Source: Octopus sinensis
Taxonomy: Eukaryota
DNA: 64,000 nt
Assembly: GCF_006345805.1 (NCBI RefSeq)
Contig: NC_043003.1
Location: 84,878,001-84,942,000 of the forward strand
Direction: 5' to 3'
Shown here: one piece after another, positions 1 to 16,800 of the stretch
How positions within the stretch are numbered: the first letter of the stretch is position 1
How the letters are laid out: each line of letters begins with the position of its first letter
Translations under genes and position numbers: made by a program
Notes under the pieces: generated by a model
Told to the model about the DNA's origin: nothing
Seen by the model: only the letters and a program-made list of their open reading frames with translations
Databases searched by the model: none

Positions 1-909
1 GAGACAATGTCCGTGAAGCACGTAATCGTCTGTTCCACGTAAATTTCCCAAAAGTTAAAACACTGATTTACAATAAGTTATACTTCAGTGTTTTAACAAA
101 GCAACAGGTAACAGTCTTTAAAGTATGTTACAAATATGTATCAATATATAGGGAATTACAACAAATTATTTTATAATATTTACAAAATATCAGAACATAA
201 ATATTTTCGTATTTTAATAATAGTTCGTAATGGACACATGAAGTGTTTCAAATATGAGCAGAGGTCGTGCTATTTTGTCGGAGACAAATTAAATCGATTA
301 CATTACATATGTTTTTATCAGATATTTCTAGATATTCATTTCCATATTGTGTGCTATTTATCATACAAAAGTTATTAATAATCCAACATTAGAGCACCCA
401 GATATAAAGAATGGTTTGATTCATAGCGATCATGTTGTCACTGAATGATACATTATTTCAACTGTTTCATATTCCTCCAAGCCAAGCATAACTATATCTA
501 TTTCTTTTACATTATGAAACTATATACTAAAACTATGTTTGCTAACTGTAATTTATAAACACTTAAGTTTCAATACTCTTTCAAAATGTGCGACGATATC
601 TACAATCTACACGTATATGCGTGCAACTTTCTAATTACTTAAAATTCATAATTTCTAACATTGTGATATTCATTAATATCACATCTCTTGAAAATGATAT
701 CATTGAGGATTTTTATATTTCATGTAATTCATATAATCACAGCATTTCAACGCATACCGAAGGGAACCAAATGACGAGCTGCTTAGGAATCTTATACCTA
801 TTAAACATTCTGTCATGTTTTTACATCAGGAAATTATGAATAAAAAGATGAATATTTCAATTATAAAACTTTTTGAGTGTTAACGTAATTATATATAAGA
901 ATCCCTTAG

Positions 910-939
910 CTGTTGAACTTGCTGAAGGATTGATTGCAG
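910..939 (-). pseudogene. 30-nt micro-exon with dead donor (AAINPSASST)
   Basis: tatttctag|CTGCAATCAATCCTTCAGCAAGTTCAACAG|ctaagg; the donor GT is replaced by CT. Confidence 0.7.
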
Positions 940-13800: not shown

Positions 13801-16800
13801 ACTAACCACTTCTGAAACTAAGACAGTATATCCATGCCAGTTATAAATATTTTTTGAAGGCTATGTTTGTGATGCATGTAATCTTCTATAGCTCGAAGTT
13901 CAATCATTGATTTACAATAAATTATACATCAATATTTTCCCTAAAGTAACATATAACATTCTTTAAAATAACTTTCAGATATGTATCAATATATAGCAGC
14001 ATAAATCAATATTTATTGCCTGACAACATTTCATAATATTTACATTTTAAACCATAAATAATTTCGTATTTTATAATAGTTCGTAATGAAACTATAAATT
14101 GCTGCAAATATGGTCACAGCAATTTTGTGGGGGATCTACTCCATCGTTTACATGAACTCAGATATTTTAACGTCTACGACAGGAGGTAATGCAATGATAA
14201 TCTCGGCAGCATTTCAACGCATACCGAAGGGGGAGAGATGACGACCTGCTTAAGAATTTGATAGACCTGTTAAAGATTCTGCCAGGTTGTTAGCCCTAAG
14301 AACTATGAATAAAACGATGAATATTATAATTATAAGAATCTTTGAATATTAACATAATTATATATAAGCATTATTTACCGTTTGGAAGTCCATTAGTACT
14401 GGTTACGCCTAGAAATATATAAAATACATATTATTATAGAAAGTATATCGGATTGCAAAGTCATTTTTCATAATAGATATTATGAATATACAATATATCC
14501 TTTAATGCTTGCTCTAATAACATCTTCAATGGCATGCTTTCCTTTCATCTCGAGATGAGAAAATATCTGGTTTCCAATGAAAATCTTTTTAATGAATTAA
14601 TGATCCTATCAGCACTATTTCAATGGCAAGGACATAGGTTTTTTAAGGTTATTTACCTTATCTTAAACATCGCAAAAAATACACACGCAATATATTATAG
14701 TTATTTAATATAGAATAAATATTATTAGATTTGTAATTACTTAATTTGGATTATATGGAAGACATGACATCAATACCTATTGGTTGGCAATATTTCATAA
14801 TATTTACATTTTAAAACAAATATTTTCGTATTAGCATAATAGTTCGTAATGAAATTGAGAATTGCTTTAAATATCACAGCCCACCAGACTCAAGACACAA
14901 GAAATATTTTCTCAAATTGCTGCAGGATTTTCTTTCTTTCTTTTTTTTAAATATCATTGAGTGAATGACTGCTTCCCACACATTGTGCGACGCTAGATTC
15001 ATGAGAAATATTTAAACCTTTCACCAAAATCCAATGAGTGTGAGAACACACCTTGCTGCCATGCTCCTGTACTAGAAATAGAAATGCTTGCATTCGTAAA
15101 CGCCATTCTTAATACCAAAGGATAGACAGTGTTTACAGAGTGCAGTTTTTCTTCCTTTCAGAGACATGATGTCAATGTAAATAATAGATATTATTAAAGA
15201 CAACGTGTGTAATGTACGTAATTTACTGTTCCACGTAGTTTTCCCTAATTTCAAATATTGATTTATAATAAATTGCACTTCAGTGCTCTAACCAAAACGC
15301 CAGTTAACTTTCTTTTAAAGTAATTTTCAGCTAGGTATTAATATATAGCAACATACATTGATACTAATTGTTTGGTATTGCTTAAAATAATTCCGTACAA
15401 GGCCAGGAAGAATGAGAGGTAGCGACGTGAGACAGAGTACAGAGAAATAGAGCTCGTTTGAATGGATAATTTTAATGTTGTGAGAGAACGAACATTTTTT
15501 TCATTTTCCTGCAAGTTCTTTCTTCACAGATGCCACTGTGCGAATATCCGGTTCCAAATAGTACATTATGTCTTGTAGGAATCATTAGAATATTTTGAGA
15601 TTTTATATTAGCAAGAGTATGCTATCTTAATCCTCATAATGTTTTAAGGAACACACCTTGCTACTGCGTTTCTGTACAAAGTTTTTTTCCATGGATTCAT
15701 TCCCTTCCTAACACCATCGGGTATACTAATTCATTTTATCACAATTTTTCTTGGCACCAGTGAAATAGTTTGCCTCGTCTTAGTCATACCTCAAAAGTCC
15801 TCGCATCCCTGCATGGTCTTTGCTCGAACTTTGAACATTTCGCAGCTGATACAGATTACACTTTTTACCTGTCACAAGCGCTTTGGAGTTTGTCTCACCT
15901 TCTGCAACACGATTCTGGCGTGTGTACTGGGTGCTTTCTCCCGTTGTGTGTGTTTGCTGAAATTGCTGAGCGGAGTGACAATCATGTCATGAAAAACTGC
16001 AAAAACTATGGAAAGAAGCCACAAAGCGGGAAGAAGAAAAATCCATAAAAATGTGGGAAAAACAACAAGAGTGAGTCACTAACTATGAAGAAAACCATGG
16101 AGACAAATGCATAATGAAAACGAAACCACAACAACACGAAGAAATCGAAAACAAACTTAGACACTAACCCCAGAAGAACCGAACTGAGGTAACGAACCTC
16201 TAATTACCCAAGAACATACGCGGAAATGACCCCTGTCTCACCCCAAGTACAGACCAGAAACCTATATTCTACAATGCATAACACTGCAAATAGCCAACAC
16301 ATGAAATATAGAAGACGACTATCAACCCATAAGTCCACACACCATAGATGGATAAATAAAAAGAAAAAAGGGCATGAAAGGCAAATAACATACAGACAAC
16401 CACCAACCGGTAATAAAAGATGGAAGAGAGAGACAAATAAAATACAGACAGCACGGGTATTATAATAGGAATAATAATCATCATCATAACTCAAGCAACC
16501 CACGATTTACGACCAAAATTTCCATATATCCTGAATGGCGAAAAGAGCATGGAGGAAGGGAAGAAAACAAAACTTATAACCAGCGGAATTCATATAAAAG
16601 ATATGAACCATCCTCCCACTTACATGGAAACCAGAACGCCGAGATCAGAAAACGGAGACATAGTGACAAAATTCCATTTTTAGGGAGGAAATACTAAAAT
16701 AACACACCGGACCCGATAATACACAAAATTTAAATGAACACACACACAACATATAGACCCGAAGATCATAAATAAATTTGTCAAACGAGAATGAGATGAT

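Follow-up and report, generated by a model that had tools for sequence, protein, structure and literature searches.

A likely surface-protein gene of Octopus sinensis whose micro-exons derive from one tandemly duplicated exon-plus-intron cassette

How might a gene gain and lose whole coding exons and still be read in frame? The question is raised by a 64,000-nucleotide stretch of the Octopus sinensis genome (hereafter the window; C7:84878001–84942000 of the 2.72-Gb genome, so that genome position is 84878000 plus the window coordinate), in which the original prediction saw a protein growing by duplication of a 1756-bp unit that carries 21 coding nucleotides. We examined the window together with 60 kb to its left and 140 kb to its right (264 kb). 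Our reading, which we consider probable, is that the locus holds the core of a mollusc gene that occurs three times, whose cassette micro-exons are predicted to encode the Ser/Thr/Pro-rich body of a small, likely glycosylated and likely GPI-anchored surface protein, and that these exons, probably through diversifying selection, are much more variable than the introns around them.

Window positions 1–14408 are the middle part of a minus-strand gene. Profile searches with acceptor and donor flanks locate 31 cassette exons in the 264 kb and, besides these, three 36-nt exons whose donor context is related. They fall into three gene copies: A, on the minus strand; B, on the plus strand, in an inverted duplication centered near 34.7 kb; and C, on the minus strand 155–163 kb rightward. 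The substitution divergence of copy A is 1.77% from B and 0.94% from C. All 29 genome matches of an exon-flank probe lie at this locus, and exon 1 and the 36-nt exon each have exactly three matches in the genome. Intact micro-exons number nine in A, six in B and 13 in C, and 21-nt exons six, zero and nine, respectively (15 in all); a ∼1.8 kb segment common to B and C is absent from A. A transposon was considered as the source of the cassette and is unsupported, all 17 matches (from three of five candidates scored) being at this locus.

The center of the inverted duplication lies at window 33903–35576, and its arms, ∼75 kb long, extend to about −43000 and +105600. Identity between the arms is 99.7% over the innermost 689 bp and 92–98% farther out, and the A and B genes point away from each other. 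Copy C is flanked by ∼2.6 kb inverted repeats that are 92% identical (C7 about 85005000–85007600 and 85079500–85082000), possibly a trace of the mechanism by which C was duplicated. Elsewhere in this genome, the hemocyanin domain PF14830 has 37 matches, with none in 14 control genomes, which marks the genome as molluscan; hemocyanin genes occur there as an inverted pair with identical scores (C28:3453489–3513104) and as three tandem copies (C5:90610179–90705642), arrangements that either arose by recent duplication or are assembly errors.

Successive exons of copy A are spaced 1836, 1216, 1526, 1756, 1756, 1756, 1743, 924, 956, 2060 and 2396 bp apart. The run of 1756, 1756, 1756 and 1743 in the young tandem array, followed by 924 and 956, bears out the predicted 1756-bp unit with its 21 coding nucleotides, although the full-length 1.75-kb exon-plus-intron cassette is limited to about five units (2357–11269, no strand assigned). 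Within one cassette lies a 924-bp tandem duplication (1433–3281, likewise unstranded) whose halves, 1433–2358 and 2357–3281, are 96.4% identical and have both kept the exon, as had been proposed for a partial duplication of ∼0.92 kb. The two exons in question, A8 and A9, are sisters, and the duplication joint shares ∼1 base, which points to a non-homologous break as its origin; the full-unit copies, on the other hand, would fit unequal exchange. All 30 introns examined, when painted on one reference intron, prove to be one cassette copied in full, shortened by deletion or partly duplicated, and the array introns are 71–100% identical to that reference. In the unit tree a clade of 21-nt units (91/80) sits within the 30-nt units (100/99), which makes the 9-nt loss a derived state, in keeping with the predicted greater age of the 30-nt exons; the sister of the 21-nt clade in the flank tree is the flanks of a 30-nt exon of copy B (B5), within the 30-nt group, and there are separate recent expansions in A and in C. 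Together, unit tree and intron painting support the birth of exons by cassette duplication. Each of the six 21-nt exons of A has AG and GTAAGT sites, no stops, and at least four of six full codons specifying Ser, Thr or Pro, a content reached by only two of 1714 intron 21-mers. Whole exons have been added and removed at this locus, without frame shift, by cassette duplication, partial duplication and deletion.

In our model the gene runs from exon 1 through micro-exons of 21–30 nt and a 36-nt exon to a hydrophobic last exon, with all internal exons in phase 1; exon 1 would be joined to the micro-exons, and the last exon appears to belong to the same gene. In copy A (minus strand) the coding part of exon 1 (24185–24230) starts with an ATG at 24230, encodes 15 mostly hydrophobic residues, predicted to be a signal peptide, and ends at a phase-1 GTGAGT donor; motifs just upstream are presumably TATA-like and initiator-like elements. 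Next come A1 (14379–14408), an intact 30-nt phase-1 micro-exon with orthologues B1 and C1, and two dead exons, A2 (12544–12572) and A3 (11336–11356). These are followed by the 21-nt micro-exons A4 (9810–9830, in the young array), A5 (8054–8074), A6 (6298–6318), A7 (4542–4562) and, within the 924-bp duplication, A8 (2799–2819) and A9 (1875–1895), and then by A10 (910–939), a 30-nt exon with a dead donor. To the left of the window are a 30-nt exon (C7:84876850–84876879), the 36-nt exon (C7:84874448–84874483) and the coding part of the best candidate for the last exon (C7:84869098–84869162). The inverted copy B (plus strand) has the coding part of its exon 1, with the predicted signal peptide, at 45114–45159, followed by the intact 30-nt exon B1 (57209–57238), the dead 29-nt exon B2 (59043–59071), which is the orthologue of A2, and three more intact 30-nt exons, B3 (60253–60282, orthologue of the truncated A3), B4 (62645–62674, present in B only) and B5 (63361–63390). 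The ten exons originally named in 1–14408, and that at 59043–59071, all have the positions and lengths they had been given. Candidate extra exons were also seen at window 22500, 16283, 15066 and 14992, and cassette-like fragments without an exon, possibly eroded older units, lie upstream of the first micro-exon at 14780–14860 and 15230–15370.

Deaths of exons had been read from four copies, and the lesions are all present: GT>CT at the donor of 910–939, a deleted donor at 11336–11356, and GT>AT at 12544–12572 and 59043–59071. The last two, however, are one inherited event that was carried along when the whole gene was duplicated and that C has as well, and the sequence at 11336–11356 is what remains of a 30-nt exon, intact in B and C, that lost its 3′ end and donor (∼25 bp). 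A2 has in addition lost one base at its 5′ end; that a single deleted base lies behind both its 29-nt length and its dead donor was rejected, as the alignment gap is at the 5′ end. Death by splice-site loss finds support in independent lesions of one exon, the donor in A10 (GT>CT) and the acceptor (AG>AC) in its C homologue C13 (C7:85034194–85034223), where the donor is intact. There are four independent deaths, those of the 29-nt exon (A, B and C), A3 (A only), A10 and C13. By our own approximate scoring matrix, intact donors score 2.6–8.7 bits, versus −4.8 bits for a residual in-frame GT in A3 and −3.1 to −7.5 bits for GTs near the dead donors; an internal AG might allow C13 to persist as a 12-nt exon that keeps the frame. 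A10 and C13 differ at three of 30 bases against a background of 0.94% (P=0.003), which fits a 910-type exon that continued to diverge until it was lost on two occasions.

All 28 exons with intact sites have lengths that are multiples of three and are in phase 1, and all descend from one cassette; frame-shifting exons with intact splice sites, the observation that the original prediction named as contrary to it, number 0 of 28. Its further argument, that selection on the frame is visible in the one exon of 29 nt having a dead donor, lacks statistical support: the 29-nt exon is one event that was counted twice, and off-frame exons are one of four among independent dead exons and zero of eight among live lineages (P=0.33). 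Frame selection is plausible, but this count does not demonstrate it.

Among ten full units, 10 of 21 exon sites are variable versus 90 of 1681 intron sites (P=6e-8), an exon excess of about ninefold, and none of 1661 intron windows reaches the exon count (the maximum is 6). With 15 units, whose flanks are shorter and partly rearranged, the values are 12/21 and 156/815 (P=2e-4), the exon count of 12 is matched or exceeded in 51 of 795 intron windows, and the mean pairwise difference is 0.228 in exons and 0.047 in introns. C6 and C7, for example, differ at seven of 21 exon bases and at 0.5% of intron bases. Between gene copies, the three live exons with three-way orthologues vary at 12 of 96 positions versus 10 of 741 in their flanks (P=7e-7), a test that leaves out the two-way group B3/C3 (flank non-homologous past ∼63 nt) and is not significant when that group is included (four live groups; P=0.40, or P=0.08 with other flanks). 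The dead 29-nt exon varies at one of 29 positions and its flanks at 13 of 259, and live and dead exons compared directly give P=0.30. Variable sites are also more frequent in live micro-exons than in the terminal coding exons (13/126 vs 3/111, P=0.02). Across the four orthologous groups of live exons, each of the nine full codons that vary is an amino-acid replacement. The nine distinct 21-nt variants have pN 0.27 and pS 0.17, with 0.047 in the introns; the units are not independent, and pN exceeds pS on the strength of few sites. Silent sites are thus also raised in the 21-nt exons, and intron homogenization accounts for part of the contrast. Taken together, these values suggest that selection keeps or drives the exon differences and that conversion homogenizes the introns.

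The chief competing account is neutral, satellite-like turnover by unequal crossing-over, in which the exons would encode a linker of unconstrained length and conversion would homogenize the introns and stall at the divergent exon. We regard it as improbable, though it deserves some weight. It is favored by exon pS lying above the intron level, by the toleration of four independent exon deaths and by the few linked flank differences beside exon types, but it does not predict that the dead exon should be no more variable than its flanks when live ones are about ten times more so, that replacements should make up the whole set of variable orthologous codons, or that third positions 5, 8, 17 and 20 of the 21-nt exon should be invariant in all 15 units.

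Contigs of four of 24 listed runs (X4, X20, X19 and X11) were placed on the region called L021 (window −4700 to +5300). X11 is a DNA run; none of the listed runs is recorded as RNA, and the RNA nature of the others is a guess that the joints support. A joint with GT-AG ends at L021 1182–3549, which removes the intron between the 30-nt and the 36-nt exon at the predicted sites, is present in X4 (depth 925.6) and X20 (depth 76.1), from two studies, and in neither X19 nor the DNA run X11; the intron-only bins 1337–2004 and 2673–3340 have depths of 4.6–11.4 in X4. In X4 the 30-nt penultimate micro-exon is also joined to a 910-type exon, which in turn is joined to another copy of its own type (depth 463.1). 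In neither exon do the four opening letters agree with A: those of the penultimate exon are B-type, and those of the 910-type exon match neither the A nor the C copy. The transcript therefore stems from a different allele, paralogue or species, one in which an exon that has died in A and C and that B lacks is spliced and present twice; it is no test of whether A's own dead exon is skipped. These contigs add to the support for exon birth and death. Three of four joints in X11 (L021 5730–7706, 6454–6118 and 7742–4899) connect segments that a rough check did not find adjacent in the assembly, and may be other unit layouts or alignment noise.

No joint with a 21-nt exon is among those listed on L021, a region that takes in neither exon 1 nor the candidate last exon; the shortest sides listed there are 21–26 nt, near the limit of placement, so this absence says little. 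It could nonetheless be argued that the 21-nt array is mostly unspliced, that A and C are decaying, and that the expressed gene is B-like or another allele made of 30-nt exons. The spliced micro-exons seen, among the joints listed, are indeed of 30–36 nt only, the penultimate exon in X4 starts with B-type letters, and A has three dead exons. We nevertheless find this account quite unlikely: all 15 of the 21-nt exons have an AG, their donors are the gene's strongest (8.7 bits), they are open in frame and code for Ser, Thr and Pro, and pieces of this length are at the limit of what can be placed.

That the 1756-bp expansion or copy C is merely a false duplication in the assembly has very little to commend it, for although A and C differ so little, C7 and C8 are one base apart, and X11 and X4 have the C-type base at four diagnostic sites, all 55 pairs among the 11 full units differ, by 1–99 substitutions (7–99 within A), exon types alternate along the array, A lacks the ∼1.8 kb B/C segment, and both X4 and X11 cover all 30 L021 bins. 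At the four sites these two runs do not have A's base, so C may be an allele of A that was placed in tandem; the arrays would then still be real, with haplotypes that differ by six versus nine exons. The cassette is real and not an assembly artefact, and the arrays differ between copies (or haplotypes) whether C is a paralogue or an allele.

We return to the reading in which the micro-exons encode most of a surface protein. The candidate last exon has a strong acceptor and encodes a 17-residue hydrophobic stretch (mean hydropathy 2.2) that ends one residue before the stop, and all 65 of its coding bases are identical across the three copies. A rival candidate for the last exon, 49 nt past the 36-nt exon, is disfavored, since B has lost its stop and it would leave an extremely short intron. 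The predicted products of A, B and C have 110, 98 and 141 residues, respectively, with micro-exons contributing 67%, 63% and 74% of coding length, and in the 21- and 30-nt exons Ser, Thr and Pro together make up 70%, 42% and 60% of full codons. N-glycan sequons switch among variants (N-S-T in A9 vs K-S-T in A8), and copy C alternates exon types with and without N-T-T. Read by eye, the 36-nt exon and the putative last exon show in succession a small-residue omega site, a polar spacer and a hydrophobic tail. From these features the protein, with a predicted N-terminal signal peptide, is likely glycosylated and likely GPI-anchored at the cell surface. A six-frame scan found no large coding exon or domain in copy A among the open reading frames listed, and a search with the exon-1 read-through, against longer proteins only, gave 33 candidates, none with E≤10, which is weak evidence. 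A short open frame at window 25622–25822 (minus strand) resembles, we presume, the C-terminal end of a non-LTR retrotransposon protein.

A literature search that did not extend to most subscription papers found no earlier description of this gene. By architecture, and not by sequence homology, it may be set beside SmPoMuc of Schistosoma mansoni and would work like it. In SmPoMuc, a 27-bp exon with its flanking intron forms ∼1-kb tandem repeats, up to 20 of them, in a clustered gene family; identity among the introns is >93%, whereas the exons are of different types that are mixed along the repeats. Its describers explain this by conversion and unequal crossing-over together with selection on the exons, and also mention silk genes (PMC2576457). 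The octopus gene likewise has a small symmetric exon tandemly repeated with its flanking intron, introns that are homogenized while exons differ, and a variable repeat number (0, 6 and 9 21-nt exons in B, A and C, and the doubled 910-type exon in X4). It differs in its mollusc host and in a 1.76-kb cassette without microsatellite spacers (none in window 1–16000), in that every internal exon and intron comes from one cassette with dead exons still visible, and in having at least nine distinct 21-nt variants where SmPoMuc has two main exon types. Where SmPoMuc has 13 further exons, our model has 36-nt and 65-nt coding exons after the array and a GPI-like tail; nor is this a schistosome gene of 15 exons with the conserved C-terminal region that marks SmPoMuc membership.

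Micro-exon genes (MEGs) have a signal peptide and most of their coding sequence in symmetric exons of up to 36 bp, and their products are secreted or membrane-anchored (PMC5825161, PMC4350168); some are predicted to be O-glycosylated, and they evolve fast (PMC4350168). They are described as apparently restricted to platyhelminths (PMC4350168, PMC5825161). The octopus gene has similar small symmetric micro-exons and would share the signal peptide, which is predicted for it, but with 63–74% of coding length in micro-exons it lies below the ∼80% in exons of 6–36 bp found in MEGs, and its introns, unlike theirs, are homologous cassettes. Among the human glycophorins, pseudoexon 3 of GYPB has a dead donor, is alive in the paralogue GYPA and can be restored by recombination (PMC12274195). 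The likeness lies in tandem paralogues of a small surface glycoprotein with an exon silenced by a dead donor in one copy, although the lineage is unrelated. Glycophorins span the membrane and, to our knowledge, have no multi-kilobase cassette array. Small GPI-anchored glycopeptides of the CD24/CD52 type have the layout predicted here, a signal peptide, a short Ser/Thr-rich core and a GPI signal, and LPA KIV-2 and spider silk also grow by exon-intron cassette repeats. We know of no sequence common to CD24/CD52, LPA KIV-2, silk and this gene, and of none among them made of 21-nt exons.

A bolder proposal, which we offer tentatively and consider possible but doubtful, is that a mollusc has independently evolved a diversifier of the MEG/SmPoMuc type. 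A GPI-anchored glycan display would be made wholly from one self-duplicating cassette, and recombination between its near-identical introns, used as handles, would shuffle, multiply, silence and revive positively selected glyco-modules of 7–10 residues. Individuals or species might then differ in the surface barcode by which immune, parasite or gamete recognition works.

The underlying mechanisms are already known, and the design has so far been described mainly in parasitic flatworms. This one locus, however, shows the birth, death and survival of exons from one cassette; its dead exon serves as a neutral control from within the locus, and another sample's transcript contains, in two live copies, an exon that has died here. 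It is a compact test case for the origin of micro-exon arrays and for intron homogenization plus selection as a diversifier. Micro-exon genes, having no long open frame, are easily overlooked in annotation, and if the surface-protein reading is true, an architecture that has been called a parasite speciality would also be present in a free-living mollusc.
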